Part shown: piece by piece, positions 1 through 64,000 of the stretch
How the letters are laid out: the number at the start of each line of letters is the position of its first letter
Position numbering within the stretch: the stretch's first letter is position 1
NCBI GenBank assembly: GCA_018650795.1
Contig: JABIFG010000058.1
Location: 9,497 to 73,496, forward strand
Origin: Fidelibacterota bacterium
GTDB taxonomy: Bacteria > Fidelibacterota > UBA8477 > JABMPR01
DNA: 64,000 bases
Direction of reading: 5' to 3'
The notes under the pieces: model-generated
Database searches by the model: none
The model's input: the letters and a program-made list of their open reading frames with translations, nothing else
Told to the model about the DNA's origin: nothing
Program-made: the position numbers and the translations under genes

Positions 1-596
1 CGGCTTTTCGCGCTATCCGGGATAATCGTTGTTGAAGCCCAGATAAGTGATTCTGCAGATTTTTCCAATTGAGTTACGATTTGATCCAGATTGCTGGCGT
101 ATTGATCAAGCACTACTCGGTGTGGTGTAGTTGCGTCAGATTCAGTTTTCTTTTTCCTTTTAAGGTCATTCATACCCCAGTTAAAATGAATAACTTCCCA
201 CTGCGTACCAGCCAGCCATTTTTGGAGATTTTTGAGAGCTGATTTTGTATCCCCACCATTGGCTGGAATACGGTAAACATTTGCTATATCAGCTAATTCT
301 TCTCGTACTGCATGTGTGTATCCAACTGAGATTGCACCTCCCATTAGCAGGACATTGGGCAGGGATGGATCTGTATTCACAAATGCGAATGCGGGTTGTT
401 TGAGCTGTTTCTCCTTCAAGCCAGCGACCCACAGTTCCTGATCTGTATATATTGTCTTTCTGATTGAGGCAACTGCTACCGATTTTTGTTTGACTGACTC
501 AGGGGCAACTTTCACTGTGTTGGCTGTGGTTTCCAAACAGGCAACCAGATTAAATGAAAGGACCATAATTGTGGATAGGAGCAATCCTTTACCCAT
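1..596 (-). CDS. SGNH/GDSL-family hydrolase lipoprotein (putative carbohydrate esterase); the 3' end runs off the window start
   Basis: My own reverse-complement translation from the ATG at 596 gives MGKGLLLSTIMVLSFNLVAC LETT... This has a lipoprotein-type signal and a FNWGMND block typical of SGNH hydrolases. The frame stays open to position 1. It is absent from the ORF track because there is no stop codon in the window. Confidence 0.5.
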   Translation of the reverse strand, partial: MGKGLLLSTIMVLSFNLVACLETTANTVKVAPESVKQKSVAVASIRKTIYTDQELWVAGLKEKQLKQPAFAFVNTDPSLPNVLLMGGAISVGYTHAVREELADIANVYRIPANGGDTKSALKNLQKWLAGTQWEVIHFNWGMNDLKRKKKTESDATTPHRVVLDQYASNLDQIVTQLEKSAESLIWASTTIIPDSAKS

Positions 597-650
597 TTTA
601 GCATTTATTTTCTTTGACATGTTTCTCTCTTCCCTCTTGATGATAGTTTT

Positions 651-2201
651 CTATTTGAATTCAATCTTGTAAGCAAAGGCGTGTTGCCCCATTTGATTTT
701 TGGGGAGCTGGACAGTCAGGTGGTCAGCCGTGTTTTCCCAGCTGAGATTCCCCTCATATCCTAACAAGGACACTTTGCTTATGGGTCTGAAGTGCTCAGA
801 ACTCTCACCCAATGCATTAATCATGAGTTGTCCAGAATCGTCCCATCCCAGAGCTATTACATAGAGCACACCGTCATTGGCAGTAAAGCGGATATCCTGA
901 GGCACATAGCTCACCTTGTTTTTACGCTCGCTGAAAGCACCACCGATTTCCTTTGTAGGACCTTCGCCATACTTTAGCCAAGGTCTCGTATCATAGATGG
1001 CTTCACCGTTGACCTTGAGCCACTCTCCCATGCCCAGAAGCGTTTGCTGAGCACCCTCAGGAATCGATCCATCTGCACTGGGGCCAACGTTTAATAGTAG
1101 ACAACCATTTTTACTCACAATATCAACCAGGACGTCGATGAGTTCATTTACTGACCGATAATCTGAATTTTCTACATGACTCCAGGAAACATTGTCAATT
1201 GAAGTATCTGTCAACCAGGGGAACGGAGCTAAACTATCCATACGTCCGCGTTCAAAATCTAGAATACCTGCTCCAGCCGGGAAATCGTCATGCTTGTACG
1301 CAACACCAACATCCTGGCCTCTTTGAGCAGACTCATTGTAATAATATGCCAGAAACCTTTTTTTATAAGCCTGAAAATCATCTCTGGATTCACGCCAAAA
1401 CTTTTTTCTCTCCAGCCCCGAATCAAACCACAAGAGATCTGGATGATATTTATCGATGACTTCGATAGTTTTCTCTTCCCAGGCTTTCATATAAGCCGGT
1501 GTGGGTGCATCCCCTACCTCATGGATTGGTGGAAACATTCCATAGGGACCCGCCAGATCTGGATTCTGGGTATCAAAGCGGTGATCTTCACGGAAAGACG
1601 GCTCAAAATACCACCATTTACGGGCATGATGAAGGGAAGCCATAAATTTCATATCCTGAGCCCTGATAGCTGTGGCAAGTTCTCCGACTATGTCTCGTTT
1701 GGGACCTTTATCCATAGCATCCCACTCAGTTAGATCGCTATCCCACATGGCGAAACCATCGTGGTGTTCGGCGACTGGACCGGCGAACTGAGCTCCAGCT
1801 TGTTTAAAAAGATCGGCCCATTCCTGAGCATCGAATTTTTCGGCTGTGAAGAGGGGCACAAAATCACTATAGCCAAATTTGGTTTGATCGCCCCAGGTTT
1901 CAGCATGATGGGTAAAATAATTACCTCTTCGATGGTCTTTTTCGATATACATCTTACGGGGATACCATTCATGACCCCATGCAGGAATCGAATAAACGCC
2001 CCAGTGGGTATAGATTCCAAATTTAGCATCACTGAACCATTGGGGATCCTCATGTTTTACCAGAGACTCCCAATTCTCCTCAAAAGGTCCCAGAACTGGC
2101 TCTTGTTCAATGATTTCAGGTTTTGGCTGGCAGTTGATGATGAATAGAATACAACCAATTAGTAACAGCATCATTCTATCTTTGAGTTTGAACATCGCCA
2201 T
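651..2201 (-). CDS. alpha-L-fucosidase, GH29
   Basis: Contains the GH29 hallmarks KFGIYTHWGVYS, HHDGFAMWDS and LLNVGP. The likely start is MAMFKLKDRMMLLLIGCILFIINC, a signal peptide or lipobox. The longest ORF (to 2294) would overlap the upstream gene by 89 nt, so the internal start was chosen. Confidence 0.88.
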   Translation of the reverse strand: MAMFKLKDRMMLLLIGCILFIINCQPKPEIIEQEPVLGPFEENWESLVKHEDPQWFSDAKFGIYTHWGVYSIPAWGHEWYPRKMYIEKDHRRGNYFTHHAETWGDQTKFGYSDFVPLFTAEKFDAQEWADLFKQAGAQFAGPVAEHHDGFAMWDSDLTEWDAMDKGPKRDIVGELATAIRAQDMKFMASLHHARKWWYFEPSFREDHRFDTQNPDLAGPYGMFPPIHEVGDAPTPAYMKAWEEKTIEVIDKYHPDLLWFDSGLERKKFWRESRDDFQAYKKRFLAYYYNESAQRGQDVGVAYKHDDFPAGAGILDFERGRMDSLAPFPWLTDTSIDNVSWSHVENSDYRSVNELIDVLVDIVSKNGCLLLNVGPSADGSIPEGAQQTLLGMGEWLKVNGEAIYDTRPWLKYGEGPTKEIGGAFSERKNKVSYVPQDIRFTANDGVLYVIALGWDDSGQLMINALGESSEHFRPISKVSLLGYEGNLSWENTADHLTVQLPKNQMGQHAFAYKIEFK

Positions 2202-2205: not shown

Positions 2206-4443
2206 CTATTTGACCAGTTGGAGGTTTTCACCAGAGTGATCTTCCAATGTTTCAGCACTCCAGAGTTCAATATTATTCTTCCAGATCCTCTCAAAACTCG
2301 GCTGGCTAAGCAATCCGATCTTCATGATGTCAATGGATTCAATCCCCATTGCTAGTGCGGGAGAGCCTTCTTCAAGTCGGACATCACCCCTGGCCATATC
2401 TTTGAATAGTGGATCGGCATATACTCCATGAGCCTCGTGCCCCAAGGCCTGAATCTGCTCTAAGGACTTCTTTCCGGCTTCCTGCATATCAGAATAAAAT
2501 AAATTGTAATCAGGATTTGCCAGATCCAGTAATCCTTTGAGCTTCTTTTCAACATTCGTGTTGTAAAATCTAACAGGAGTACCAATACCGTAGATAATGT
2601 TTTTATTTACTTTAGCACCTACAACGGTCTCAGGTCTAATAGATATTCCACCTCCAATGACGATGTTGTTTAGGATATAATTTGTGTGCTTTAGTTTGAT
2701 GCCATTGCCAAAAACAATATTCTGTTCCACATAGGATTCTTCCTGGTCGTCATCAAAGCGAATTTCGTTTGAAGCTTTGGTGGTCTTGTAAATCAGATTC
2801 CGTTTGATAATATTGCCTTTGCCTGCACATGACAGATAGATAGCATTTCCATCACCCAATACTTCCATGACATTATGAAATTCATTATCCTGGACCACAT
2901 TGTTGCGAGCATGTGCAAATTTTAAGGCTTCCTCTGCAGTCTGAGGATCATCCGTTTCTTCCCAGCGAATGATCTGCATATTTTCTCGAATTCTCCTTGG
3001 AATTGCGTATCCAGTCCACTTCACAGAATCCATGATCCCAAAATAGCGTGGACGGACACCGCTCAAGACGATGGCATCATAGGGCAAATCATGGATATAA
3101 TTGTTCAGAACTTTATTCTCTCCGCTCTGCCAGATAAAGATTCCAGGACTATGTAGATAGAGTTGACCAATCCTGGACATCTCATTGTCGACAATGCTAT
3201 GGCCGTAATTTACATCCTTAACACCAGGTCCATATCCAGCGAGCAAGATGCCTGTGCCACCGAGATTATCAATCTTGTTGGAGCGAATCTCAATATTCTG
3301 GCCGTAAAGGTCGATGCGGATTCCCCCACTCCCTGCATTTCGAAAATCACAGGCAATAACCCTACAATCCTGTGCTGATCTGAATCTGAGGAGGGTATTG
3401 TCCTTGTCAAACATATCCCAATCATGCTGAATACCACGGTCTTCCTTCGTCCAGGTATCCCGATCAGTGCCTGTGAAAGTCAAGCCCTTGAATTGAATTC
3501 CTCTAACAGGGATATCACCTTTAACTTCGTAGACATTTTTTCCTTCCACGCGTACAAGCGTCGGTAATGTGGGAGCTTGAATATTATCTCCGGGTGTATC
3601 TCCGGTTGGCCACAGGTAAAGCTTACCTGCCTGTGAGTCCAACACCCATTCACCAGGTTGATCCAGAGCTTCCAGAACATTCTCTACCCAGCAGGTCTCT
3701 TTCCAGGGTTTGTTTTTGACCTGACAGAGACGATAGGTTCCAGGAAGTGTTGTTGTAGCCAATAAGTTTTCTTCGTCCACGCTTTCCAGGGTTAAATAAT
3801 TAACCAACCATTGATGGGTCGGTCGGATAAAAATCTCAACATCTGATAGATTTGGCCAATCTTTGATTACGCCTTCCGGATAGTGCAAAATTTGTAGATC
3901 TTCCCATCTGTTGGCCAGGGTTGGGTTGGGACAGGCTGTGGTTGGTTGAAAGCCCTTAGAGCGGGCTCTGGGTAGTAGTGTTTCACCGTCATAGAGGGTT
4001 TTAAAGTTCCATTTGTCAGGTCCTTGATTGTTCAAGTCGAGGACATAAACATTTCCGTGCGCGATGGCGGGTAAAGCTTCCGGTGGGGAAGCAAGTTTTT
4101 GCCATCCGCTGAGTACTTTGGTGGATGTGATGATGGGTTCTGCGCCTTCTGCTGCTTCCCAACTGATTGTCTGACCTTCACCTGCACCATCCTTCAATCC
4201 CAGAACCAGCGTTTCATCCAGACGATAGACACCTCCACTTAGAACTACAGAGATATCACCGGTGTACTCATTACCCAGTGCTTCGCGAACCAATGTTTGA
4301 GCTTTTGTAAGGGTTGCAACAGGAGCATCCATGGTGCCCATGTTGGCGTCAGCGCCAGTTGGTGAGACGTGGATGGACATAGATTTCTCATCACATCTAT
4401 TGAACAGGATGGCTAGTGCTAGAATTAAAACTTTAAATTTCAT
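2206..4443 (-). CDS. secreted right-handed parallel beta-helix protein (pectin-lyase fold), candidate glycoside hydrolase or lyase for sulfated fucan
   Basis: 745 aa with an N-terminal signal (MKFKVLILALAILFNRC). The start SIHVSPTGADANMGTMDAPVATLTKAQ is typical of DUF1565/beta-helix proteins. Repetitive G/N-rich rungs are present (NAGSGGIRIDLYGQNIEIRSNKIDNLGGTGILL). There is no T9SS CTD. Confidence 0.6.
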   Translation of the reverse strand: MKFKVLILALAILFNRCDEKSMSIHVSPTGADANMGTMDAPVATLTKAQTLVREALGNEYTGDISVVLSGGVYRLDETLVLGLKDGAGEGQTISWEAAEGAEPIITSTKVLSGWQKLASPPEALPAIAHGNVYVLDLNNQGPDKWNFKTLYDGETLLPRARSKGFQPTTACPNPTLANRWEDLQILHYPEGVIKDWPNLSDVEIFIRPTHQWLVNYLTLESVDEENLLATTTLPGTYRLCQVKNKPWKETCWVENVLEALDQPGEWVLDSQAGKLYLWPTGDTPGDNIQAPTLPTLVRVEGKNVYEVKGDIPVRGIQFKGLTFTGTDRDTWTKEDRGIQHDWDMFDKDNTLLRFRSAQDCRVIACDFRNAGSGGIRIDLYGQNIEIRSNKIDNLGGTGILLAGYGPGVKDVNYGHSIVDNEMSRIGQLYLHSPGIFIWQSGENKVLNNYIHDLPYDAIVLSGVRPRYFGIMDSVKWTGYAIPRRIRENMQIIRWEETDDPQTAEEALKFAHARNNVVQDNEFHNVMEVLGDGNAIYLSCAGKGNIIKRNLIYKTTKASNEIRFDDDQEESYVEQNIVFGNGIKLKHTNYILNNIVIGGGISIRPETVVGAKVNKNIIYGIGTPVRFYNTNVEKKLKGLLDLANPDYNLFYSDMQEAGKKSLEQIQALGHEAHGVYADPLFKDMARGDVRLEEGSPALAMGIESIDIMKIGLLSQPSFERIWKNNIELWSAETLEDHSGENLQLVK

Positions 4444-4473: not shown

Positions 4474-6114
4474 CTAATCCCAGGCTTGTTCTCTGACTCG
4501 CATCAGGTCTGGATATTTCTCATCGGTGTCACCATATTGCTCTTTCAACTTCAGCAACTCCAACTTGAGTTTTTTAATCACTGCTGAGTATTCAGGATCT
4601 TCGTATACATTTTTCAATTCGCCTGGATCATTTTCCAGGTCATAAAGTTCCCAACCTGGAGGAGATGGACGATAATGATCCAATGCTTCAGTTGTTTTAT
4701 CCATGGTTTCGGAGGTTTTTTCCCCAACCAGACCCAAACCCAAACCATAAAAGAAGATGAGCTTATATTTATAAGTCCTGATACCGTAATGAGCGGGGAC
4801 ATTATGATGGGCCATGTGCATCCAGTATCGATAGTACATTGATATCCGCCAGGTCTCTGGGATATCACCACTTAACTGAGGAAGAAATGATGCTCCTTGC
4901 ATGCTGGAGGTTTTTTCTCCACCGGCTATATCCAGAAACAAGGGGGCAAAATCGATATTGAGGACCAGGCTGTCGTCAACACTTCCTGGTTCAGTAATAC
5001 CGGGGTATCTGGCGATGAAGGGCATTCTCAAGGAATCCTCATACATCCAGCGTTTATCATAGTAGTCGTGCTCTCCCAGAAACTGGCCTTGATCTGAGGT
5101 ATAGATAACCACTGTATTTTCAGCCAGACCACTTTGATCCAGATAATCCAACACTCGACCGACATTTTCGTCAATGGCTGCTACACAGCGCAGATAGTCC
5201 TTTATGTATTTCTGGTATCCAGACCGCTTTATTTGATCCGCGTCCATTCCTATGGCATCCAGAGCACCAGTTGGCCATTCTTTGCCAGCGCTCCCCTTCT
5301 CCATTCGTTTACCCAGCTTATAAAGATTGGAGCCGTAGCCCTGGGTAGATTCAGAACGATGAGACTTATCTTCCCAAAAACTGGGGGGTTCAGGAACCTC
5401 AATGCCATCAAGTAGATGTTCATAGCGGGGTGGATATTCCCAGAGACCGTGAGGTGCTTTATGTTGACACAGGAGAAAAAATGGTTTCTCATCATCTCGT
5501 GCCTCAAGCCATTTCAGCGTTTCTTCGGTAACCACGTCAGTGGCATAGCCTGGATAAACTTTCTCATCACCCTCTTGATTTTTCATGACGGGATCAAAAT
5601 AGGTACCTTGCCCCAGTACGCCGGTCAAGACATTCCAGTGATCAAATCCCTGGGGATCACCATGGAGATGGTATTTCCCAATAATTGCGGTTTCATAACC
5701 AGATTTCTGCAACTCATGGGCCACATGCTTGGTACCCGTCGGTAATGGATCATCAAGAGTTCTCACACCATTGATATGACCATACTGTCCTGTAAGGATA
5801 CTGGCACGACTGGGAGTACAGATGGAATTGGTGCAGAAGCAATTATCAAAACGCATCCCCTCCTTGGCGATCCGATCAATATTTGGTGTGGGCAGTGTTT
5901 CTGCCAGCCAGCCCTTGTATGCGCTAATGGCGTTGGCAGCATGATCATCTGACATGATGTAAAGAATATTTGGTTTCTTCTGGGTGGACTTTTTACTGGA
6001 TAGGCAGGATAGCAATGAGGATGAGCCTGCTAGAGCTAGACCTCCAACTGCAATCTGTTGCATGAATTTTCTACGGGATAGGGGTGTTGATTTAGTATTC
6101 ATCATAGCTCTCAT
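4474..6114 (-). CDS. S1-family sulfatase (formylglycine-dependent), Tat-secreted
   Basis: Tat motif SRRKFMQQIAVGG; sulfatase signature MSDDH...CTPSRASILTGQYGH (C-x-P-x-R). Confidence 0.9.
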   Translation of the reverse strand: MRAMMNTKSTPLSRRKFMQQIAVGGLALAGSSSLLSCLSSKKSTQKKPNILYIMSDDHAANAISAYKGWLAETLPTPNIDRIAKEGMRFDNCFCTNSICTPSRASILTGQYGHINGVRTLDDPLPTGTKHVAHELQKSGYETAIIGKYHLHGDPQGFDHWNVLTGVLGQGTYFDPVMKNQEGDEKVYPGYATDVVTEETLKWLEARDDEKPFFLLCQHKAPHGLWEYPPRYEHLLDGIEVPEPPSFWEDKSHRSESTQGYGSNLYKLGKRMEKGSAGKEWPTGALDAIGMDADQIKRSGYQKYIKDYLRCVAAIDENVGRVLDYLDQSGLAENTVVIYTSDQGQFLGEHDYYDKRWMYEDSLRMPFIARYPGITEPGSVDDSLVLNIDFAPLFLDIAGGEKTSSMQGASFLPQLSGDIPETWRISMYYRYWMHMAHHNVPAHYGIRTYKYKLIFFYGLGLGLVGEKTSETMDKTTEALDHYRPSPPGWELYDLENDPGELKNVYEDPEYSAVIKKLKLELLKLKEQYGDTDEKYPDLMRVREQAWD

Positions 6115-6310: not shown

Positions 6311-6315
6311 AACAA

Positions 6316-18442: not shown

Positions 18443-18477
18443 GGAATAATCTTATCCCTCATTCACTTTAGGTATAA

Positions 18478-18498
18478 TTGGTATACTAATATATACCA
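18478..18498. promoter_or_regulatory. Inverted repeat TGGTATA-N6-TATACCA about 40 bp upstream of the sulfatase start; instance of the recurring GTATA/TATAC operator-like motif
   Basis: ttggtatactaatatatacca. Related palindromes at 31148-31165, 38811-38820 (TAGTATACTA), 42731-42739 and 52869-52887 (AAGTATActtaaTATACTT), all upstream of transcription-unit starts. Confidence 0.3.
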
Positions 18499-31362: not shown

Positions 31363-31698
31363 TTACAAACTTATACCAAAGTACTGCAACACCAACTGGT
31401 CTAATCCCGTATTCTCAAGCGCATGCCGTTCCCCTGCCTCAACAACCACGGTTATACCCGTCATGAGATCGTAATGACTGCCCTCTATGGTGATAACTCC
31501 AGATCCACTCTGCACAATGAATATCTCAATCAGGTCCTTATGAACATGCTCCTCCACCTTTTCACCTGGGGGATATGCCGATTGTGCCAGGGTAGAAATA
31601 TTCCCGATCTCATGATATTTCAATATGACCTGCTTCTTAATTCTTGGATTGTGAGAAACAGAATCTTGAGGCAATTCTTTAAGATTAACAAGCTTCAT
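31363..31698 (-). CDS. cupin-domain protein
   Basis: 111 aa; GEKVEEHVHKD...EIFIVQSGSGVITIEG...VVVEAGERHALENTG is the two-motif cupin_2 signature. Confidence 0.7.
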   Translation of the reverse strand: MKLVNLKELPQDSVSHNPRIKKQVILKYHEIGNISTLAQSAYPPGEKVEEHVHKDLIEIFIVQSGSGVITIEGSHYDLMTGITVVVEAGERHALENTGLDQLVLQYFGISL

Positions 31699-46347: not shown

Positions 46348-47433
46348 TTAAAGAGTCATTCCGAGTGAAAATCTATTGATGGCTCCCAGATAGGAATCAT
46401 AATTGTTGAATGAATAATCCACTTGCACACCTTTAAAATGCAGACCAAAACCAAGGCTCCAGTTCTCTGTATCATAATTCAGTTTGTAGCCAGATCTCAC
46501 AAAAAGCAGCTCATCGTAAGCATATTCCAATCCAAAATTAAACTGCTGATCGTAATCACGGGGAGCCAACATATCCACCGCAAAGAGCAGACTGGATTTC
46601 GAGTTCGGTGAAGTGAGAATCGCATCTTTTGGACCAAAAACATAGCCAGAAATACCCATGACTAGAATCTGTGGTAAGGGATACTGTTTACCTGTAACTG
46701 TTTTGATTTCATCCGTATAAGTACTGTCATGGAAGATTCGCAGGGTGTCTTCATATTCAATAAAACTTACATCCTTACCAAAATGTCTCAGGACCATAGA
46801 TATTTTTACAGATTCATAACCCGTTTTGTATTGCAGACCTGTATCAAAGGCGATGAGGGAAGCTGACATCTCACTACCATTATAGGAATAATCCGCATTT
46901 TCCTTGATCTGCTTCGCTGTCAAACCGAATGCAAATTTGTTCGTAAGGGATGCGGCATAGGACAAGCCGATAATCTGATGTCCAGGGTTAAAAGTCTCGC
47001 CGGTAAGACCTGGATTAAAATCTCCGTTTTGATATCCCATTGCATCTACAGAAGTGACATTCATTTCGCCATAATCGGTGAATTGAGCCATCATACCAAC
47101 AGTTCCAAAATTTGGAAAGTTGTAGGCGGCTGAAAAGGCAGAGGTTTTTACATCAAAGAAATAGTTGAAATGAGAAGCCGAAAGATCAAGCTTATCAATA
47201 TCCGTCAGACCTGCAGGATTGATAAACATTGCAGATGCACCATCAACAAAGGATGATATGGCATCACCCATAGCCGCCGATCTGGCGGTGGGATTGACCT
47301 TAAGGAATTGAAATGCAGTCGTCCCAACCTTTTCCTGAGCCATCACGGAGGAAAGGAAAATTGCAGCACAGATGATGACCTGTCTTGCCCTGCCTGATCT
47401 TCTTTTCATAATTTTCTCTTCACTCCATATCAT
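46348..47433 (-). CDS. PorV-like T9SS-associated outer-membrane beta-barrel (paralog of 20171-21163)
   Basis: TTAFQFLKVNPTARSAAMGDAISSFVDGASAMFINPAGLTD; ends ...NRFSLGMTL. One-bp gap to the next gene and a 4-bp overlap with the previous one, so they are co-transcribed. Confidence 0.55.
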   Translation of the reverse strand: MIWSEEKIMKRRSGRARQVIICAAIFLSSVMAQEKVGTTAFQFLKVNPTARSAAMGDAISSFVDGASAMFINPAGLTDIDKLDLSASHFNYFFDVKTSAFSAAYNFPNFGTVGMMAQFTDYGEMNVTSVDAMGYQNGDFNPGLTGETFNPGHQIIGLSYAASLTNKFAFGLTAKQIKENADYSYNGSEMSASLIAFDTGLQYKTGYESVKISMVLRHFGKDVSFIEYEDTLRIFHDSTYTDEIKTVTGKQYPLPQILVMGISGYVFGPKDAILTSPNSKSSLLFAVDMLAPRDYDQQFNFGLEYAYDELLFVRSGYKLNYDTENWSLGFGLHFKGVQVDYSFNNYDSYLGAINRFSLGMTL

Positions 47434-58023: not shown

Positions 58024-58064
58024 AATAACACATAACACTTCATCACCAGTTCATTATCTCAAGT

Positions 58065-59867
58065 CTATTTCACAAGGATCATTTTTCTGACTTGACTCAC
58101 TCCCTCACTTTCTAAACGATAGAGATAGAGACCTGCCGGAAGTTTGCTGGCATCCAGTTTTACAGTATGGGATCCAGCGGTATAGTCCCCAGATGCAATC
58201 GAGTGAACCCAGCGTCCCTTGATATCAAACAACTCGAGGCTTATGTACTGATTATCCTCCAATTCAAATTGGATATTGGTACTTGGATTGAACGGATTAG
58301 GAAAATTTTGTGATAAACTAAAGCTCCTGGGTGCCCGACGAACCTGATCAATGCCAACAACCCCGCCGGGTCCGACCATAGACACATCATCGACATAGAT
58401 GGTTCCATCTCCATCCCAACTGGCATTGACATCTACTGTCCGCAATTTGAAGTCACAAAAAGCCACGCTATCCGGGGCGGTGACAAATCCGGTTGAAATA
58501 TGCTGCCAGCCCCCCTCATTAGCAGTGATGCCTGATTCGACATCAGAACCAACTCGGTCGTGCTCAGCGTTCTCCCATCTGATTAAAACGCGTCCTACTA
58601 CTGCTGAATCATTGTCAAAAAACCAGGCTGAGAATTTGTAATCATCTCCTGCAACTACCGGGATATCCTGTTGAGTGAACAGGCGGGGACTCTTAATGGT
58701 TTGTTCAATGCGAACACTCCTGGTTCCCCAATGAACTATAGATTCTTCTATGGAAGCTGTCACGGCGCTGTCTTTATCGAATGCCCAAAACTCAGGCATG
58801 GTATCGTTCCAGGTCTCGAAACCTACATTACTAAGGTGCTCACCTAAGCCAGCATAAATCAGGTCTGAAGAAAGTTTGGTACTAGGCAAACCATTTTCAT
58901 CTTGAATGTATAAGCTTACGCTGTAATGACCTGGATTTTCATAAATATGACTGGGAGACTGCTCAGTACTAGAATTTCCATCTCCAAAATCCCATTGATA
59001 TTGATTGATAGGACTATTGCCTGGCACTGAAAGATCAGTAAAATTAACCATAAGCGGAGCATCACCTGATGTGGGTGAAGCCGTAAAGTCAGCACTTGGT
59101 GCACCCGTCACTTCAGCTACCGGAGAATCATCGTCCCAGAGTGGATCGCCCACGATCGTACCATTGTTTCCGCTGGTACTGTAGTCCTGGGTTGAGGTTC
59201 CACTTCCTTCATTAAATTTCCAATATCCCTGAAGTGTAGCTGAGGAATTGTAATTCCCACCATCCGCTAAAACATCAAGAACATTTCCTTCGGCATAAAT
59301 AGCTGCAGCCTCTTCTGGATTCAAAGCTGAATTCCAGAAAGCAATTTCGTCCAGCTTACCACCATAATAACCATTGTTCTTGCGGGCGAATCTTAACTTT
59401 CCCGTATTATCAAGTGATAAGGTAGAGAAGGTATTGATAATGACAGAATCAGAGGCAGAACCATTAATATAAATATAGGCTGTGTCCAATAAGGTTCGAT
59501 CTACTGCCAGAATAATATTTACCCAGGCATTGGTTTCAACTTCAGTCATAATATCTGGTTCGGAACGCAGGGAAATTTCCTCCACACCAGCTACTTTCCC
59601 GAGAAAAGTAATGGCTCCCGTCCCGCCATTTAAGTTGAATTGCCAGAGGTTAGCGCCGTTTTGCTTTTTGGCCATGAACATCTTTCCATCTGCCCAGGAG
59701 TCTACCTTGGCCCATACAGAAATGCTAAAATCGCCTTCAATTAGATCAAGGGCAGGTGAATCCTCGAATTCTACAAAATCATTTACACCATCAAAATTCA
59801 AAGAATAATCCTCGGCATGGCTGATGCCGTATAATAGAATTAATACTATTACACTTATCTTTTTCAT
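58065..59867 (-). CDS. secreted protein with LamG/concanavalin-A-like lectin, PKD, CBM4/9-like and type-A T9SS CTD modules
   Basis: LamG-like LNFDGVNDFVEFEDSPALDL...FSISVWAKVDSW...GKLDEIAFWNSALNPEEAAAIY. PKD ...NFTDLS...YQWDFGDGNSSTEQSPSHIYENPGHYSVSLYIQDENG. CBM4/9-like LSNVGFETWND...EFWAFDKD. CTD LSQNFPNPFNPSTNIQF...GLYLYRL...RKMILVK. Confidence 0.7.
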   Translation of the reverse strand: MKKISVIVLILLYGISHAEDYSLNFDGVNDFVEFEDSPALDLIEGDFSISVWAKVDSWADGKMFMAKKQNGANLWQFNLNGGTGAITFLGKVAGVEEISLRSEPDIMTEVETNAWVNIILAVDRTLLDTAYIYINGSASDSVIINTFSTLSLDNTGKLRFARKNNGYYGGKLDEIAFWNSALNPEEAAAIYAEGNVLDVLADGGNYNSSATLQGYWKFNEGSGTSTQDYSTSGNNGTIVGDPLWDDDSPVAEVTGAPSADFTASPTSGDAPLMVNFTDLSVPGNSPINQYQWDFGDGNSSTEQSPSHIYENPGHYSVSLYIQDENGLPSTKLSSDLIYAGLGEHLSNVGFETWNDTMPEFWAFDKDSAVTASIEESIVHWGTRSVRIEQTIKSPRLFTQQDIPVVAGDDYKFSAWFFDNDSAVVGRVLIRWENAEHDRVGSDVESGITANEGGWQHISTGFVTAPDSVAFCDFKLRTVDVNASWDGDGTIYVDDVSMVGPGGVVGIDQVRRAPRSFSLSQNFPNPFNPSTNIQFELEDNQYISLELFDIKGRWVHSIASGDYTAGSHTVKLDASKLPAGLYLYRLESEGVSQVRKMILVK

Positions 59868-59894: not shown

Positions 59895-61283
59895 TTAATG
59901 CTTCTTTATTTCTTTGGCCATTTCAGCTAAAACTGATCCAAAACGTTTGCGTCTCACTTCAGCCGTTGAAGCTAGATCCCCTACCGGCAGTGGCGATTTT
60001 TCGTCTGGATCGGTAATGACGTCATAGAAATTGCCATTGTTATAGAGTTTCCAACGTTCATCGCGAACCCATCTTGTAAATTCAGGCTTATCTGATTTCT
60101 TCTTTTTGGGTTTTTTATTTTTCTTATTCTTCTTTTTCTTCTTTTCGATCCCGCTGTCTTCAACGGCATATTTTCCTTTTTCAAAATGACAGAAAATATA
60201 TTCCTTGGGGTGACCCTGCTTGCCCTTGAGCTGAGGTACAAAGCTGACACCATCCACGATGAAATCTTTTGAAATTTTAGCTCCACCAATTTCTGCTACA
60301 GTTGGGAGAATATCTGAAAAATCAATGAGATCGGTATTGAGCTTATTGGCAGGTGCAGTCCCCTCCCAATAGGCAATTAAGGGTACATGAGTACCGGCAT
60401 CAATACTGCGGCCCTTTCCTCCACGGATCTTTTTACCATTAAATTTGGATGTGACCTTCTTATCTGTCCCATTATCACCTGTGAACAGGAGAAGTGTATC
60501 ATCTGCAATCCCAAGTTCCTCCAGATGATCAACCATTTTTCCCACGATTTTATCGGTATAGGCTACCATATCGGGGAAGTATTTGGTGTTGCGCTTGGAT
60601 TTTGAATCCCCTTCCTTGCTATCCGGTGTGGGGACATGGGGGCCATGTGTCAAAGCCATGGGATAATAGATGAAGAAGGGGTTTTTCTTATTCCGGGTCA
60701 TAAAATCCATGAGGAATTGTGAATAGATATCGGGGCCATATTTCCCATCAGTATCCTTAAGCACTTTCCCATTTTGGGTAATATTTGGATTCCAATAACG
60801 CGAGCCCTTGGATTCACGATCTACCTGCCAGAGACAGTATTCATCAAAGCCAGAATCTTCGGGTCGTGTGCCAGGAAATTCTTTGCCACGTCCTGAAAGC
60901 TGCCATTTGCCAGCGATAGCCGTAGCATACCCTGCAGTACCCATAATGTGTCCGAAGGTCTTCTCGCCCTTGTTGAGGGTTTCGAAAGCCACATAATTGC
61001 GGGCATTAGTTTTCCCAGTCATGATTTTCACCCTGGTGGGCGTGCAAACCGGTTGTGAGTGACAGTTCGTAAACCTGATCCCGCGTTTGGCCAGATCATC
61101 AATTCGTGGAGTAGAATATGATTGTCCACCATTGGCTGTTACGCATTCATAGCCAAAATCATCAGGCATGATGAGGATAATATTCGGTTTCTTTTTACCA
61201 AACGCTGCCTGAGCCAGCCCGCTTGGTATTGATAATGCCAGAGTACCTATTCCAGCGGATTTAAGAAATTCCCGTCGCTTCAT
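59895..61283 (-). CDS. S1-family sulfatase, Tat-secreted, with an internal lysine-rich insert
   Basis: MKRREFLKSAGIGTLALS; MPDDFGYE...CTPTRVKIMTGK; an insert EKKKKKNKKNKKPKKKKSDKPE lies near the C-terminus. Confidence 0.88.
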   Translation of the reverse strand: MKRREFLKSAGIGTLALSIPSGLAQAAFGKKKPNIILIMPDDFGYECVTANGGQSYSTPRIDDLAKRGIRFTNCHSQPVCTPTRVKIMTGKTNARNYVAFETLNKGEKTFGHIMGTAGYATAIAGKWQLSGRGKEFPGTRPEDSGFDEYCLWQVDRESKGSRYWNPNITQNGKVLKDTDGKYGPDIYSQFLMDFMTRNKKNPFFIYYPMALTHGPHVPTPDSKEGDSKSKRNTKYFPDMVAYTDKIVGKMVDHLEELGIADDTLLLFTGDNGTDKKVTSKFNGKKIRGGKGRSIDAGTHVPLIAYWEGTAPANKLNTDLIDFSDILPTVAEIGGAKISKDFIVDGVSFVPQLKGKQGHPKEYIFCHFEKGKYAVEDSGIEKKKKKNKKNKKPKKKKSDKPEFTRWVRDERWKLYNNGNFYDVITDPDEKSPLPVGDLASTAEVRRKRFGSVLAEMAKEIKKH

Positions 61284-61284: not shown

Positions 61285-62802
61285 TTATTTCACCAGTTCA
61301 CATTTTAGAACAAAGGCATGTTCACAGGGTTTGGACTGGGGAAAAGTGACTTTCAACTCGGTCTCACTGAGAAACCAATCATTGATGGGTCCACTGCCCA
61401 GCATTTCAATTCTATTGATTTCTGTGGAATTTTTCTGTAATTCGCTCCAGATATCTTTTACCGTAGCTACTCCATTCTCAGGCCAATCCATGACGATAAT
61501 ATATAAGTCGTTATCTCTAGTAGTGTATCGAATATCACCTGCTGTGAATTCACCTTTACGGCGATTATGTCCACCACCCTCAACAAAAGTGGGTCCCTCA
61601 CCATAGCTAGTCCAGGGTCTGGTCCCATAAATGGCCTCGCCATTCATTTCAAGCCATTTGCCAATATCCAGGAGGCGTTTTTTTGATTCATCATCGATTT
61701 TGCCGTGCCGATCGGGACCTACATTCAACAGCATACTTCCATTTTTGCTGACAACGTCAATCAATTCATCAATGAGCCAGTTGGATGTGAAGTATTTGGG
61801 ATTTTTAATATATCCCCAGGAATTTGACATGACTGAGTTGTCAGTTAGCCAAGCCTCTGGACTCAATTCAGCCATTGAGCCTCTTTCATTATCCTTGATG
61901 CCAACACCTTCTGGCAGATTGTCCTTTTTGTAGGTAATGCCCACTTCTTTACCGGCAGCTTGAGCCTTGTTATAATAGTTGTGGATAAAGTCCTTCTTAT
62001 AGGGTTCAAAGGCTCCCTTCCCCCAGGCTCCGTCAAACCAGAGTAAATCAGGATCGTATTTTTCAATCACCTCTTCAATCTTGTGCTGCCAGTCCAGCAG
62101 ATATTCCTCGCTGTGAGGAGCTCTTTTTTCGTGGATAGGACCATACATACTTCCTACATAAGCATATTGGGGATCACCGGTATCATAACTGGAGTCATGA
62201 TCATAAAGGGACCAGTTACGGGCATGGTGAAAGGAGGTGACAAAATGCATGGAGCGTTTACGGATGGCGATTTCCAATTCCCCAACAATATCCCGCTTGG
62301 GACCCATTTCTTTGGCATCCCATTTGGTCAGATCACTATCCCACATGACAAACCCATCATGATGGACTGCTACGGGACCGGCAAAACGAGCTCCAGATTT
62401 TTGAAAAAGATCTGCCCATTCCTCAGCATCAAATTGAGCACCATCAAACATGGGTAGAAAATCCTTATAACCAAATTCAGACGGATGTCCCCAGGTCTTG
62501 GTGTGATGACCAAAAAAATCTTTCTTGCGGAAACCGTCTTTCTCATACATGCCATGGGGATACCATTCGGTATAGTAGGCTGGTACACTATATGGACCCC
62601 AATGGGTATAGATTCCAAATTTTGCATCCCTAAACCATTCAGGGGTCTGATGTTGCTTCAAGGATTCCCAGTCAGCAGTAAATGGTAAAGTAATTTCCTG
62701 TTTAGCCTCAGGCGTGATTTCAGTTGCAACCCGCTCATTAGCACAGCCATAAAGACATCCCATAATTATGGGAATCAGCAGCAATTCCTTATATTGCATC
62801 AT
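61285..62802 (-). CDS. alpha-L-fucosidase, GH29
   Basis: Lipoprotein-type signal ...IMGCLYGCAN; KFGIYTHWGPYSV, HHDGFVMWDSDL, LLNVGPDRHG. Confidence 0.88.
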   Translation of the reverse strand: MMQYKELLLIPIIMGCLYGCANERVATEITPEAKQEITLPFTADWESLKQHQTPEWFRDAKFGIYTHWGPYSVPAYYTEWYPHGMYEKDGFRKKDFFGHHTKTWGHPSEFGYKDFLPMFDGAQFDAEEWADLFQKSGARFAGPVAVHHDGFVMWDSDLTKWDAKEMGPKRDIVGELEIAIRKRSMHFVTSFHHARNWSLYDHDSSYDTGDPQYAYVGSMYGPIHEKRAPHSEEYLLDWQHKIEEVIEKYDPDLLWFDGAWGKGAFEPYKKDFIHNYYNKAQAAGKEVGITYKKDNLPEGVGIKDNERGSMAELSPEAWLTDNSVMSNSWGYIKNPKYFTSNWLIDELIDVVSKNGSMLLNVGPDRHGKIDDESKKRLLDIGKWLEMNGEAIYGTRPWTSYGEGPTFVEGGGHNRRKGEFTAGDIRYTTRDNDLYIIVMDWPENGVATVKDIWSELQKNSTEINRIEMLGSGPINDWFLSETELKVTFPQSKPCEHAFVLKCELVK

Positions 62803-64000
62803 TTCTTTTTCCTACTCTTCTTTATACTCAATTTGCTTTTTGCTAGTGCTTCTCGATATTTCTTAAATTCCTTTTTAGGAATAAGTCGGATTTTTTCATC
62901 CCATGACACGTGACGATCCATCAACACAGCCCATTCTGGATAGTTATTGCGCTGCACACAATTTTTCTTCCAGCGTTCAACTTCTTGATCGTAATATTTC
63001 TGCATCTGTCGCAAGGTTTTCTGCATTTCAGGCTTATCAACCAGGTTATGCATCTCTAAGGTATCTTCTTTGAGATCATACAATTCCTCTGCTGCCTGCA
63101 TCCCTTCACCAGCAAAAAACCAGTTGATGTACTTATATCTTTCTGTCACAACACCCAGTTCGTGTGTGGGTATAATCCCCCAGACATTCATGATAGGTAG
63201 TGCTTCGCGAAGCTTGTGTTTGGGATTTTCAACCATGGATCGCATGCTGATACCATCAACTGATTTTGGAATTTCCAGCTCAGCGTAGTCCATTATAGTC
63301 GGCATGATGTCTACACTCCCGGTTACTCCCTGACAGCGATATCCTTTGCCTGAATTTCGGTGTCGTGGATCCAGTATGACCATGGGAGCGCGGCTGGCTT
63401 CTTCATAGGGTAAAACCTTGCCACCAAAACCATGAGCACCACAGCTATAGCCATTATCGGTTGTAAAAATGATAACCGTATTATCGGCAATGCCACGTGC
63501 TTCCAGCTTGTCTCTGATCATCTTGACAGCGACATCCACCCCATACACCAATTGATTATATTTGCGCATGGTATCCTGATAGCGCTCACCCCTGAAGTCC
63601 TTATACTGCAGGTACTGCCGGCCACTTTTCGCCTGTTGCGGTAAATGCTCAGCGTTTTTGGTACCATGATTTTTGCGCTCATCCCAAACCGTATCAGCAT
63701 AAACGTGGTCATAGCGGGAATCTGGCGATCTGGGTGAATGGGGAGCTTTGAAACTCACAGAAAGACAAAATGGCTTGTCCTGCTCCATGGCCGTATCAAT
63801 AAAATCTTCAGATGCAGCCCCCAGGGCTCCACTAACATGAGGATACTGTTCTGCGTACATGGCGATGTGTTCATTCTCTTCTGTTTCATACTCACCCTGT
63901 CCGGGCCAACCATGCCAGACATCAAAAGAATCCATGGGCATTTTTTCATTGCTATGGTATCCAGATTTATCCGGTTTATCCGTGACTGCATACCCAAATT
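62799..64000 (-). CDS. S1-family sulfatase; the N-terminal part runs off the window end
   Basis: Sulfatase C-terminal core ...IIFTTDNGYSCGAHGFGGKVLPYEEASRAPMVILDP...DIMPTI; lysine-rich tail ...KSKLSIKKSRKKK. The frame is open to position 64000, and the C-x-P-x-R region must lie beyond the window. Confidence 0.8.
   Translation of the reverse strand, partial: FGYAVTDKPDKSGYHSNEKMPMDSFDVWHGWPGQGEYETEENEHIAMYAEQYPHVSGALGAASEDFIDTAMEQDKPFCLSVSFKAPHSPRSPDSRYDHVYADTVWDERKNHGTKNAEHLPQQAKSGRQYLQYKDFRGERYQDTMRKYNQLVYGVDVAVKMIRDKLEARGIADNTVIIFTTDNGYSCGAHGFGGKVLPYEEASRAPMVILDPRHRNSGKGYRCQGVTGSVDIMPTIMDYAELEIPKSVDGISMRSMVENPKHKLREALPIMNVWGIIPTHELGVVTERYKYINWFFAGEGMQAAEELYDLKEDTLEMHNLVDKPEMQKTLRQMQKYYDQEVERWKKNCVQRNNYPEWAVLMDRHVSWDEKIRLIPKKEFKKYREALAKSKLSIKKSRKKK

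Follow-up and report, generated by a model that had tools for sequence, protein, structure and literature searches.

A SusD-free candidate uptake cassette, present twice in a Marinimicrobia locus that probably serves a sulfated, fucose-rich glycan

How might a locus equipped with fucosidases and sulfatases take up its glycan when it carries no SusD? The question is raised by a 64-kb stretch of DNA, analysed here in full and hereafter called the window. In profile searches of the Pfam/NCBIfam type, no protein in the window matched the SusD, HTCS or sigma/anti-sigma families, in keeping with an earlier note made from the sequence alone, which had reported no SusD, HTCS or ECF sigma/anti-sigma pair. 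SusC/SusD pairs nearby would have spoken against that note; SusD was found neither in the 64 kb nor in the gene calls from about 20 kb of flanking sequence. Instead, a four-gene outer-membrane cassette, T-X-V-F, stands in place of the SusC/SusD pair of Bacteroidetes at this locus and recurs across several related phyla. We judge it fairly probable that the window forms the central part of a polysaccharide-utilisation-type locus exceeding 78 kb, which would serve the use of a sulfated and fucose-rich glycan, probably also acetylated (for example fucoidan, galactofucan or diatom FCSP), with import through a SusD-free T-X-V-F core.

The window matches ENA contig ERZ27246008 k141_25944 over 22.3 kb with 100% identity, and the exact g12 protein is stored at NCBI under Candidatus Marinimicrobia. 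The closest species-representative genome is a Ca. Neomarinimicrobiota MAG sampled at 150 m in the Black Sea, whose g12 counterpart shows 92% amino-acid identity. Its syntenic 206-kb contig has the gene order of the window, with both cassettes present, at about 81-82% nucleotide identity over 13-18 kb. Taken together, these data support an uncultured marine Marinimicrobia (SAR406, Fidelibacterota) bacterium as the source, the assignment being that of NCBI labels on MAGs and not a phylogenomic placement. Marinimicrobia was among the four lineages that the earlier note had suggested.

About 35 genes (31 large ones, a 111-aa cupin, a 115-aa RhaM and two end-cut genes; some 34 had been counted before) lie on the minus strand throughout (Table 1), as does every ORF of at least 150 aa that does not shadow a larger ORF. 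The cluster overruns both window ends, still on the minus strand. Outside lie four further sulfatase genes, one of them the full-length g31, together with a SASA esterase, an ABC sugar importer and two further GH29 genes, giving six GH29 in the extended locus against four in the window. Terminator-like hairpins follow g14, g19, g20 and g6; therefore, the cluster is more than one operon. The sequence AAGGAGAGAGCACC-ATG is indeed present upstream of the 1500-aa gene (g14), with AAGGAG 8 nt ahead of the ATG. However, a Shine-Dalgarno core of at least 5 nt precedes only about 12-15 of 33 starts (~40% of genes), so that the strong sites described earlier hold for a subset that includes g14 and not as a general rule. 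A shared intergenic element, GTATA-N4-5-GTATAC, was matched 6 times against 0.00 expected (100 shuffles); it is kept in the spacers of the Black Sea MAG and is absent from 84 other loci.

Table 1. Genes and intergenic elements of the window, with assignments made from sequence
Feature	Position	Strand	Evidence
Secreted GDSL/SGNH-like protein, 5′ part of gene	1..620	-	Weak PF00657 E=0.003; 274 aa in source contig
g1, GH29 alpha-L-fucosidase, lipoprotein-type N-terminus	651..2195	-	PF01120 E=1e-102, Fucosidase_C; 514 aa in source contig
g2, GH141-like beta-helix without CTD	2206..4443	-	Beta_helix, NosD, weak GH141_M
g3, Tat-exported Cys-type S1 sulfatase, S1_11-like	4474..6114	-	PF00884, SGSH_C; SRRKFM, CTPSR
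g4, beta-helix without CTD	6316..8490	-	Beta_helix 31.5 bits; DUF1565, Chondroitinase_B weak
g5, third TonB-dependent receptor, 807 aa	8477..10900	-	OMP_b-brl_3 E=1e-58, Plug, CarboxypepD_reg
g6, surface protein, DUF5123, CBM20-like and X25-like modules, canonical type-A CTD	11015..13606	-	CTD HMM 110 bits; TIGR04183 36 bits
g7, GH29 fucosidase, tandem with g8, lipobox	13645-15252	-	PF01120 E=1.5e-81
g8, GH29 fucosidase, tandem with g7, lipobox	15262-16863	-	PF01120 E=4e-79
g9, Tat-exported Cys-type S1 sulfatase	16898..18442	-	PF00884 E=4e-56; TRREFM, CSPTR
GTATA-N4-5-GTATAC double site, upstream of g9	18472..18496	.	
g10, F of A, FadL-superfamily outer-membrane barrel, 505 aa	18640..20157	-	Toluene_X 24.7 bits, below cut-off
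g11, V of A, PorV/PorQ-family barrel	20171..21163	-	NF033709 157.8 bits, cut-off 90
g12, X of A	21166..23445	-	Signal peptide, galactose-mutarotase-like supersandwich, FN3-like domain, divergent PorZ-like CTD
g13, T of A, TonB-dependent transporter, 974 aa	23455..26379	-	N-terminal CarboxypepD_reg, TonB box DDILVTAF
g14, 1500-aa surface protein, canonical CTD	26573..31075	-	Beta-helix/NosD-like, DUF5689, DUF5123, Ig-like modules; CTD HMM 109 bits
GTATA-N4-5-GTATAC site, before g14	31148-31162		
Small cupin, 111 aa, no DNA-binding domain	31363..31698	-	PF07883 E=7e-14
g15, Tat-exported Cys-type S1 sulfatase	31714..33222	-	PF00884 E=8e-44; NRRQFL, CSPTR
g16, GH141-like beta-helix, canonical CTD	33256..35400	-	GH141_M 28.7 bits, cut-off 27; Por_Secre_tail
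g17, CBM4_9 protein, canonical CTD	35448..36932	-	CTD HMM 121 bits
RhaM-family 6-deoxy-L-hexose mutarotase, 115 aa, cytoplasmic	36960..37307	-	PF05336 E=4.5e-22, 78.7 bits, cut-off 23.4
g18, BNR/Ycf48-like propeller, no CTD	37336-38703	-	
GTATA-N4-5-GTATAC site, before g18	38804-38818		
g19, BNR/Ycf48-like propeller with CTD	39070-40908	-	
g20, BNR/Ycf48-like propeller with CTD	41037-42611	-	
GTATA-N4-5-GTATAC site, before g20	42724-42738		
g21, BNR/Ycf48-like propeller with CTD	42850-44763	-	
g22, F of B	44802..46346	-	Toluene_X 25 bits; BamG model E=1.8e-8; 24% identical to g10
g23, V of B	46348..47433	-	NF033709 161.8 bits, cut-off 90
g24, X of B	47430..49793	-	40% identical to g12, full length
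g25, T of B, TonB box EDVVVTAY	49828..52746	-	38% identical to g13; Pfam
GTATA-N4-5-GTATAC site, before g25	52872-52886		
g26, Pel9A-like beta-helix, canonical CTD	52942-55404	-	Weak GH141_M
g27, Pel9A-like beta-helix, canonical CTD	55386-57905	-	Weak GH141_M
g28, LamG, PKD and CBM4_9, canonical CTD	58065..59867	-	CTD HMM 123.5 bits
g29, Tat-exported Cys-type S1 sulfatase	59895..61283	-	PF00884 E=2e-45; KRREFL, CTPTR
g30, GH29 alpha-L-fucosidase	61285..62802	-	PF01120 E=1.7e-97
g31, S1 sulfatase, end-cut	62799..64000	-	PF00884 profile positions 153-299 only; frame open to window end; 527 aa in source contig

The enzymes of the window are largely those first read from it. Four genes matched PF01120 (E-values 1e-79 to 1e-102) and were thus confirmed as the four GH29 fucosidases proposed, the lipoboxes of g7 and g8 reading IASC and LTAC. 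The single RhaM-like mutarotase was recovered, as were beta-helix proteins, of which there are five (g2, g4, g16, g26 and g27) besides the two DUF5123 proteins g6 and g14. GH141 members of a fucoidan cluster are endo-1,4-alpha-L-fucanases (PMC12786026); membership of this family is marginal for the window's beta-helix proteins. The g2 protein matched PDB 9RX2 (E=4e-143) and, over its N-terminus only, BT1002 (GH141; E=6e-10). It is a candidate periplasmic fucan-active hydrolase; g16 is a candidate secreted endo-fucanase and the GDSL/SGNH-like protein a candidate esterase. PF00884 identified five S1 sulfatases (g3, g9, g15, g29 and the end-cut g31) where six had been claimed. All four complete ones carry a Cys-type CxPxR motif and a twin-arginine motif, the latter in agreement with the Tat export proposed for them. 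Only g3 has a close solved relative, the exo-L-galactose-6-sulfatase PDB 7LHA (E=1e-149; GlcNAc-6-sulfatases 1e-112). The PDB relatives of g9 are distant only, and the sulfatases other than g3 are as far from carrageenan sulfatases as from GAG or aryl sulfatases.

The recurrent set of fucoidan degraders consists of GH29, GH141 and S1 sulfatases (PMC12786026). With its GH29, GH141-like enzymes, sulfatases, esterases and RhaM, the locus matches this set as the earlier note expected of sulfated-fucan breakdown, and a fucoidan substrate is plausible on the strength of the GH29 and GH141-like enzymes. The resemblance of g3 to an exo-L-galactose-6-sulfatase, however, favours a mixed glycan of the galactofucan type over a pure fucan.

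An HMM built from the window's own CTDs found 12 CTD proteins, not 14 as first counted: ten canonical (77-129 bits) and two divergent (16-22 bits), the latter being the X proteins g12 and g24. No T9SS core genes lie in the window, and we infer the presence of the system from cargo signals and PorV/PorQ paralogues. The g17 protein is a candidate surface glycan binder; g18-g21 are four paralogues, with PKD or dockerin/cohesin-like modules in g19-g21. No X, V or F gene follows the third receptor, g5.

The cassette is duplicated in the window (cassettes A and B); the two copies of T, X and V are 38-40% identical, those of F 24%. The T receptors did not match the SusC/RagA model at E<=0.01. X matched no Pfam family; it has a large supersandwich of carbohydrate-binding type, a confident AF2 model, many invariant polar residues and a C-terminus that matches the PorZ model. 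The CTD of X forms a class apart from the cargo CTDs of the same genome, with a mean pairwise identity over 32 loci of 0.68 against 0.43 for neighbouring cargo CTDs. The V protein g11 scored 93.8 bits with the PorQ model and 67.2 bits with the PorV model, V lying below both equivalog cut-offs, and the V family profile matched PorV 6H3I_F at E=3e-18. For F, the family profile matched the BamG-like outer-membrane protein 9HIV_F (E=4e-7) and TbuX and CymD (about 1e-5), its FadL assignment having scores under the Pfam and NCBIfam cut-offs. An N-terminal motif of g10 is common to F and V (hhalign 97.9%).

In a set of 81 loci, 74 keep all four genes on one strand in the order T-X-V-F, and six of the remaining seven are cut by contig ends. 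Wherever the locus sequence is long enough, T adjoins X with order and strand constant. These loci come from Marinimicrobia, Calditrichota, Ignavibacteria and KSB1, and among GTDB species genomes (Marinimicrobia, Calditrichota, Ignavibacteria/Melioribacteraceae and KSB1) we confirmed 349 X genes, often several per genome. Elsewhere the cassette neighbours alginate lyase, heparinase II/III, chondroitinase-B-like, pectate-type, KduI, GH2 and KDG kinase genes, GntR/FCD regulators and DUF5123 CTD proteins. Between loci for different glycans X retains 35-48% identity, and SusD is not similarly conserved. Because of this unusual conservation, X may act independently of the substrate, as a structural lid, a chaperone-like factor or an enzyme, and may not bind the glycan itself. 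We found no earlier description of the cassette in the literature.

Domain assignments, export signals and gene order can be read directly, and from them we infer the following route. Ten canonical type-A CTD proteins would be exported to the cell surface by a T9SS; among them, the beta-helix enzymes of GH141-like and Pel9A-like type are candidate endo-fucanases, and those with CBM, LamG, DUF5123 or BNR modules may serve as binders. The two paralogous T transporters would carry oligosaccharides across the outer membrane. In the periplasm, four Tat-exported Cys-type sulfatases would strip sulfate and four GH29 enzymes, at least three of them lipoproteins, would release L-fucose, and the ABC importer just outside the window and the RhaM-family mutarotase would supply cytoplasmic catabolism. 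PorZ retains its CTD, to which PorQ binds, and the genes for PorV-like barrels lie next to those of their cognate cargo (PMC10202324). By analogy, V probably anchors X at the surface through a retained CTD, and X could act there with T as an extracellular capture or lid component, a functional counterpart of SusD. The FadL-type barrel BamG tethers a surface protein (PMC12611786), and F may likewise be an adaptor barrel of the same complex, as BamG is in tethering BamH. We propose, on the basis of gene order, that T, X, V and F form one complex, a general glycan-uptake core of non-Bacteroidia FCB lineages of which two copies here would serve a fucan. This supports and sharpens the earlier suggestion of TonB-dependent receptors with T9SS cargo in place of SusC/SusD: each T is followed by a CTD protein, a PorV/PorQ barrel and a FadL-like barrel in an order kept across phyla.

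Other readings have to be weighed. The substrate could be something other than brown-algal fucoidan, such as sulfated galactofucan, diatom FCSP, fucosylated chondroitin sulfate, mucin-like glycans or an L-galactose-containing algal galactan, a possibility that we regard as real but doubtful. Fucose has no O-6 to sulfate, and the nearest relatives of g3 are 6-sulfatases for L-galactose and GlcNAc. Profile searches of the window's proteins detected no established endo-fucanase family (GH107, GH168, GH174, GH187) and no GH95, the RhaM family is named after rhamnose, and a pelagic source, as suggested by the Black Sea relative, makes diatom FCSP likelier than kelp fucoidan. However, the six GH29 of the extended locus agree with the set that recurs in fucoidan degraders (PMC12786026), as do the GH141-like beta-helices, the esterases and the large number of sulfatases. 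Searches of the window found no GH16, GH86, GH117, GH33 or GH20, nor any polysaccharide lyase acting on galactans, mucins or GAGs. Moreover, fucoidan, broadly understood, is not sharply separated from these alternatives.

It is unlikely, in our view, that T-X-V-F is no uptake complex at all, X being a T9SS cargo such as a surface enzyme, V and F barrels dedicated to secreting or anchoring it as SprF is for SprB, and the receptor working alone as in Proteobacterial CAZyme clusters. PorP/SprF and type-B CTD proteins provide known cases of PorV-like barrels encoded beside their own cargo (PMC10202324), the supersandwich fold also occurs in GH174 endo-fucanases and several lyases, and the invariant polar residues of X would suit an enzyme. 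Yet the T-X adjacency is conserved across phyla and substrates, which argues against a substrate-specific enzyme and for a function shared with T, and the example of g5 places receptors that lack X, V and F in a different family. An ordinary Bacteroidota PUL, with SusC/SusD just outside the window and Marinimicrobia labels due to binning errors, we consider very improbable. Some related loci are labelled 'Bacteroidetes' or 'Cytophagia', which we take to reflect the GTDB placement of Ignavibacteria inside Bacteroidota, and the N-terminal CarboxypepD_reg of the receptors is typical of SusC. Against this stand the missing SusD in window and flanks, the failure of the receptors to match the SusC/RagA model, Shine-Dalgarno sites before about 40% of genes, and independent submitters who call the identical protein and the syntenic contig Marinimicrobia/Neomarinimicrobiota.

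The proposed SusD-free core can be compared with several known systems. Bacteroidota SusC/SusD PULs, in particular the fucoidan PULs of Flavobacteriia such as Wenyingzhuangia fucanilytica, likewise cluster enzymes, binders and a large CarboxypepD_reg TonB-dependent transporter, run from surface endo-enzymes through import to periplasmic exo-fucosidases and sulfatases, draw on GH29, GH141-like enzymes and S1 sulfatases, and have several paralogous uptake-gene copies per genome. The window differs in its Marinimicrobia host, in having neither HTCS nor ECF/anti-sigma regulator, and in its receptors, which miss the SusC/RagA model. In place of SusD, an all-alpha TPR lipoprotein, the partner X is an all-beta supersandwich with FN3 and CTD that is presumably T9SS-exported and no lipoprotein, and two extra FadL-superfamily barrels belong to the uptake unit. 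Proteobacterial TonB-receptor CAZyme clusters (Xanthomonas CUT loci; Gammaproteobacteria alginate/fucoidan clusters) share SusD-free receptor uptake followed by an inner-membrane transporter, but have no T9SS cargo, PorV-like barrels or obligatory surface partner beside the receptor.

Within the T9SS, SprB/SprF and PorZ/PorQ offer the parallel of a CTD protein with a PorV-like 14-strand barrel of its own, which is encoded next to it in SprB/SprF and binds it in PorZ/PorQ, the CTD being kept as anchor. In line with the PorZ-PorQ and PorU-PorV pairs of the attachment complex, V passes the PorV/PorQ family model and the CTD of X is nearest that of PorZ. However, V reaches neither equivalog cut-off, X lacks the PorZ beta-propellers, and X-V sits in a nutrient-uptake operon with a TonB-dependent transporter, multiplied per genome, and is no single housekeeping component. 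BamG-BamH of the Bacteroidota/FCB BAM complex resembles the cassette in that a FadL-family adaptor barrel tethers a surface protein to a partner barrel, and the best solved and NCBIfam matches of F are BamG-like. The similarity is weak (E about 1e-7, far under the family cut-off), F exceeds the matched BamG-type proteins in length by about 70-110 residues, and it is found in uptake loci and not in a BAM context.

All substantial ORFs in the window lie on the minus strand, and the gene total is about 35 when small ORFs and the two end-cut genes are included. GC content is even (42-45%) and the plus-strand GC skew is zero or negative everywhere, thus no strand switch is present. The strand monopoly reported in the earlier note is real and continues on the same strand past both window ends in the source contig. 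There, the flanks on the two sides carry four further sulfatase genes (one being the full-length g31), two further GH29 genes, a SASA-type esterase, a LysE protein and a three-gene ABC sugar importer. Scans of the window returned no tRNAs and no Rfam families. A repeat search of the window found no mobile element and no array, the sole signal being similarity between paralogues (CTDs, GH29, sulfatases). The four GH29 fucosidases, the RhaM-like mutarotase and the beta-helix proteins of the earlier note were all recovered in domain scans. All four complete sulfatases have twin-arginine signals, in agreement with the proposed Tat export. Its counts of six sulfatases and 14 CTD proteins were too high: we find five of the former and 12 of the latter, ten canonical and two divergent by an HMM built from the CTDs of the window.

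Features of the window and their positions; domain content of the proteins is from Pfam and NCBIfam scans
Feature	Genes	Position (nt)	Remarks
GH29 fucosidases (4)	g1, g7, g8, g30		
S1 sulfatases (5)	g3, g9, g15, g29, g31	g3: 4474-6114	g31 truncated by window end
RhaM-family mutarotase and small cupin			One each
Beta-helix proteins (5)	g2, g4, g16, g26, g27	g2: 2206-4443	Weak-to-marginal GH141-insertion-domain matches in three
Multidomain CBM / LamG / DUF5123 / DUF5689 proteins	g6, g14, g17, g28		
BNR/Ycf48-like propeller paralogues (4)	g18-g21	g18: 37336-38703; g19-g21: 39070-44763	
TonB-dependent receptors (3)	g5, g13, g25		
PorV/PorQ-family barrels (2)	g11, g23		
FadL-like barrels (2)	g10, g22		
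Proteins of 759 and 787 aa	g12, g24		No Pfam family apart from weak CTD match
GTATA-N4-5-GTATAC sites		18472-18496; 31148-31162; 38804-38818; 42724-42738; 52872-52886	
Stop/start overlaps	g5/g4; g24/g23; g27/g26; g31/g30	8477-8490; 47430-47433; 55386-55404; 62799-62802	
REP-like intergenic hairpins		6115-6315; 18443-18639; 38704-39069; 57906-58064	

Among the BNR-propeller paralogues g18 alone is without a CTD. Dockerin-like modules occur in g18 and g21 and a cohesin-like module in g21, which is unusual for a diderm T9SS setting.

A single operon spanning the window was considered and rejected. Terminator-like structures (hairpin plus T-run) follow g14, g19, g20 and g6, and the element GTATA-N4-5-GTATAC precedes g9, g14, g18, g20 and g25, each time in the intergenic region. 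There are 6 matches to this element in the window, against zero expected from 100 shuffles. One further site lies in the extended locus. Sites outside the window are recorded in L087 (6081-6095), L002 and L005. The element is kept in the orthologous spacers of a Black Sea MAG, is missing from the 84 other loci, and probably serves as operator or promoter for a regulon that spans the locus. GTATAC fits the GT-N2-AC core of GntR-type operators, and the regulator is possibly of GntR type; no regulator gene lies within the 64-kb window, and in other phyla the cassette has GntR/FCD regulators beside it. Stop and start codons of several consecutive genes overlap, suggesting translational coupling inside sub-operons. 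The earlier note had described strong Shine-Dalgarno sites: the one it quoted before the 1500-aa gene is present, but a core of at least 5 nt precedes only about 12-15 of 33 starts. GC-richer intergenic hairpins of the GTCATCCTGAGC...AGGATGAC type are REP-like and account for spurious short ORFs in both orientations.

The degradative enzymes are those of a putative fucoidan-type cluster. The four GH29 proteins score 267-345 bits against PF01120 (cut-off 25.2) with a full-length catalytic domain, and three carry clear lipoboxes. Sulfatases g3, g9, g15 and g29 combine PF00884 with a Cys-type CxPxR maturation motif, which for g31 falls outside the window. The Tat motifs of the complete sulfatases are SRRKFM, TRREFM, NRRQFL and KRREFL. 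The RhaM-type mutarotase covers profile positions 1-104 of 105 of PF05336 (78.7 bits, cut-off 23.4). Only g3 has a close solved relative, the exo-L-galactose-6-sulfatase 7LHA (E=1e-149). It is likewise very close to the GlcNAc-6-sulfatase 5G2V and is nearest to S1_11-type enzymes, with the PDB serving as proxy for SulfAtlas subfamily. The remaining three complete sulfatases have only distant PDB relatives (1e-33 to 1e-50) among S1_16, S1_19 and other entries. A 6-O-sulfatase is unable to act on fucose, and g3 therefore hints that the substrate has branches of galactose or hexosamine. From its resemblance to an exo-L-galactose-6-sulfatase, the substrate may be a hetero-glycan, for example galactofucan or diatom FCSP.

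GH141 membership of the beta-helix proteins is marginal, with g16 at 28.7 bits against GH141_M (cut-off 27) and g2 and g26 below it at 21.9 and 20.8. The match of g2 to BT1002 spans residues 23-117 only, and the protein is nearly full length in its alignment to PDB 9RX2, a 'Parallel beta-helix repeat protein' (E=4e-143). This entry, for which we found no paper, provides a structure for the otherwise unnamed enzyme family of g2. Pfam and NCBIfam scans of the locus gave no match to GH107, GH168, GH174, GH187 or GH95, an absence that is provisional since the coverage of these libraries is incomplete.

A cassette of four genes, in coding-strand order a ~970-aa TonB-dependent transporter (T), a partner protein without a Pfam model (X), a PorV/PorQ-family barrel (V) and a FadL-like barrel (F), occurs twice, as g13-g12-g11-g10 and g25-g24-g23-g22. 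The two copies are old paralogues, with T, X and V 38-40% identical and F 24%. A search with an alignment of X homologues yielded 349 confirmed X genes in species genomes. When the best 80 loci and the source contig were searched with tblastn, 74/81 loci contained T-X-V-F in that order on one strand. Six of the seven exceptions are cut by contig ends, and the last, L063, gave a partial T and X and no further match downstream of them. By record label the carriers are Marinimicrobia/Neomarinimicrobiota/Fidelibacterota, Calditrichota, Ignavibacteria (Melioribacteraceae, Ignavibacteriaceae) and KSB1, and one genome often has two or three cassettes. The labels 'Bacteroidetes' and 'Cytophagia' on a few of the loci are treated here as unreliable.

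Precomputed annotation of three distant loci places the cassette beside KduI, a pectate-lyase-like gene, a sulfatase, heparinase II/III and alginate lyase, together with chondroitinase-B-like genes, KDG kinase and aldolase, TRAP transporters and DUF4957/DUF5123 CTD proteins. In a bulk scan, the first gene downstream of F encoded a T9SS CTD in 49/60 cases, DUF5123 in 40/60 and a beta-helix in 31/60. The first gene upstream of T encoded a GntR/FCD regulator in 17 of 57 cases (loci L006-L081); other genes in this position encode heparinase-like lyases, alginate lyases, chondroitinase B, GH2 enzymes and sugar kinases. Therefore, the cassette accompanies genes for glycan degradation in general, chiefly those directed at acidic polysaccharides, and is not fucan-specific. 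Most of its close relatives sit in uronate-type loci (alginate, heparinase, pectate) and it may thus be biased towards polyanionic glycans. In other phyla (L006-L081) a fifth gene of about 480-550 aa recurs after F in 40 to 49 of 60 loci, encoding DUF5123, a beta-helix and a canonical type-A CTD. The DUF5123 proteins of the window, g6 and g14, are placed elsewhere and not directly after F.

X constitutes an uncharacterised protein family. When 1.84 billion cluster representatives were searched exhaustively with the X profile, roughly two dozen full-length clusters at 50% identity were recovered. At E<=1e-10 the profile reaches about 2,100 such clusters, and since most of these share just the FN3-CTD module, a wider superfamily of X-like partners with differing N-terminal domains is suggested. 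From about rank 40 on, the matches are mostly 600-800 aa and share FN3 and the specialised CTD (profile positions ~530-750). One 1262-aa representative, P0131, carries the full X module at 541-1261 after ~540 unrelated N-terminal residues and is either a fusion or a merged gene call. Conservation of X is highest in the N-terminal supersandwich and the CTD, and residues 330-420 are most variable. Across 32 loci the CTD of X has a mean pairwise identity of 0.68 vs 0.43 for the canonical CTD of neighbouring cargo, and its only specific NCBIfam match is the PorZ C-terminus. By sequence, the CTD of X forms a distinct class. Moreover, X is by far better conserved than SusD across loci for different glycans, and it may therefore not be the specificity determinant. 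Homology of X to SusD was also considered and rejected on fold. The AF2 model is confident (pLDDT 82.6, pTM 0.84) and all-beta, and a Foldseek search with it found no whole-protein relative; thus the X fold is not SusD-like.

V belongs to the PorV/PorQ family, with g11 and g23 scoring 157.8 and 161.8 bits against NF033709 (cut-off 90). Scores are nearer PorQ (NF033711; 93.8 and 89.9 bits) than PorV (NF033710; 67.2 and 53.9 bits), and both pairs lie below the equivalog cut-offs of 220 and 250, respectively. The V family profile matches solved PorV 6H3I_F at E=3e-18. Both copies of F fall below the cut-off of PF03349 (FadL/OmpP1/TodX; 24.7 and 25.0 bits, cut-off 29.7), and the profile has weak PDB matches to TbuX, CymD and a BamG-like outer-membrane protein (1e-5 to 4e-7). 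F and V have an N-terminal hatch motif in common (hhalign 97.9%, 71 columns). With the HMM built from the window, the ten canonical type-A CTDs score 77-129 bits vs 22 and 16 bits for the divergent CTDs of g12 and g24. The curated cut-off of PF18962/TIGR04183 is reached by g6, g14, g16, g17, g19, g20, g26, g27, g28 and g12; the CTDs of g21 and g24 lie under it but are evident from the window HMM or from homology. None of the T9SS core genes gldK/L/M/N, sprA/sov and porU was found in the window or the examined flanks.

The placement in a non-Bacteroidetes FCB lineage, for which the earlier note had listed Marinimicrobia among its candidates, is supported by submitter labels and synteny. Over 22,280 nt the window matches ENA ERZ27246008 contig k141_25944 (115.6 kb) at 100% identity, and the exact g12 protein is found on >100 contigs and carries the NCBI label 'Candidatus Marinimicrobia bacterium'. 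In a search of 185,579 species-representative genomes, the top match was a Ca. Neomarinimicrobiota MAG from the Black Sea (150 m), with 92% amino-acid identity in g12 and ~81-82% nucleotide identity over 13-18 kb. This MAG has both cassettes in the same order, 26 kb apart.

Three precedents shape our model of the cassette. PorZ has an uncleaved CTD that anchors it to PorQ, and cognate PorV-like barrels are encoded beside the cargo that each one holds (PMC10202324). Throughout the FCB superphylum, BamH at the cell surface is tethered to BamA by BamG, a barrel of the FadL type (PMC12611786). The gene order and its conservation, the domain and fold assignments and the export signals are observed; from these we infer that the products associate physically. 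By analogy with PorZ-PorQ, X would be exported by the T9SS and kept on V via its specialised CTD. A binding function is likewise envisaged for X, which at the mouth of T could form a capture or lid element, the part played by SusD in Bacteroidia. F would be an adaptor barrel, as is BamG. Proteins with canonical CTDs would act extracellularly, the beta-helix enzymes as putative endo-fucanases and the proteins with CBM, LamG or DUF5123 modules as binders. The former role is modelled on the GH141 endo-1,4-alpha-L-fucanases known from a fucoidan cluster (PMC12786026). In the periplasm, the Tat-exported sulfatases and GH29 lipoproteins would complete breakdown of the presumed sulfated fucan, and the monosaccharide would be handled by the ABC importer and the RhaM-type mutarotase.

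Our confidence in this overall reading of locus and cassette is moderate. More tentatively, and as a proposal with somewhat less than an even chance of being right, we hypothesise that T-X-V-F is an undescribed multi-phylum glycan-import machine and an independent evolutionary answer to SusC/SusD. Here, X would retain its CTD, dock on a dedicated PorQ-like barrel and cap or feed T, with a FadL-type adaptor barrel. In Marinimicrobia, Calditrichota, Ignavibacteria and KSB1, PUL-type loci would be defined by the cassette much as they are by SusC/SusD in Bacteroidia, and Marinimicrobia of the dark ocean would stand out as degraders of recalcitrant sulfated fucans. Prediction of PULs, like much of marine glycan ecology, relies on SusC/SusD pairs and therefore sees only Bacteroidia. 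If the proposal is true, T-X-V-F offers a comparable PUL-like marker for several abundant, mostly uncultured FCB phyla, and the T9SS and PorV-like barrels gain a new role, the attachment of a nutrient-capture protein to a transporter. Glycans of the fucoidan type count as recalcitrant carbon sinks, and Marinimicrobia (SAR406) are a dominant lineage of the dark and oxygen-poor ocean. A dedicated locus of ~80 kb in this lineage would point to an overlooked fucoidan consumer. The literature searched, in which subscription journals were mostly uncovered, held nothing describing the cassette or tying Marinimicrobia to fucoidan, and a prior description is possible. Vitamin receptors are the only receptors mentioned in the Caldithrix genome paper.

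The locus as a whole is a putative fucoidan-type degradation cluster of known type, in a phylum for which we found no literature link to this substrate. In common with SusC/SusD-type PULs, it clusters CAZymes with a large TonB-dependent transporter that has a carboxypeptidase-regulatory-like N-terminus: T (g13, g25) comprises an N-terminal CarboxypepD_reg domain, a TonB box and a TonB_dep_Rec barrel, and its neighbours are GH29, sulfatase and beta-helix genes. However, T does not match the SusC/RagA transporter family. In NCBIfam scans (E<=0.01), g13, g25 and g5 had no match to the TIGR04056-type model and matched only generic TonB-receptor models. The SusD lipoprotein gene (RagB/SusD, TPR-like) that stands beside the transporter in such PULs is also missing here, with no SusD-type Pfam family in the 35 window proteins and none listed among the flank genes of the source contig. 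The window equally holds no hybrid two-component sensor and no sigma/anti-sigma pair, as the earlier note had observed along with the lack of SusD. Thus, it is in its uptake core that the locus departs from known PULs, through an uncharacterised partner family and its predicted T9SS-type anchoring.
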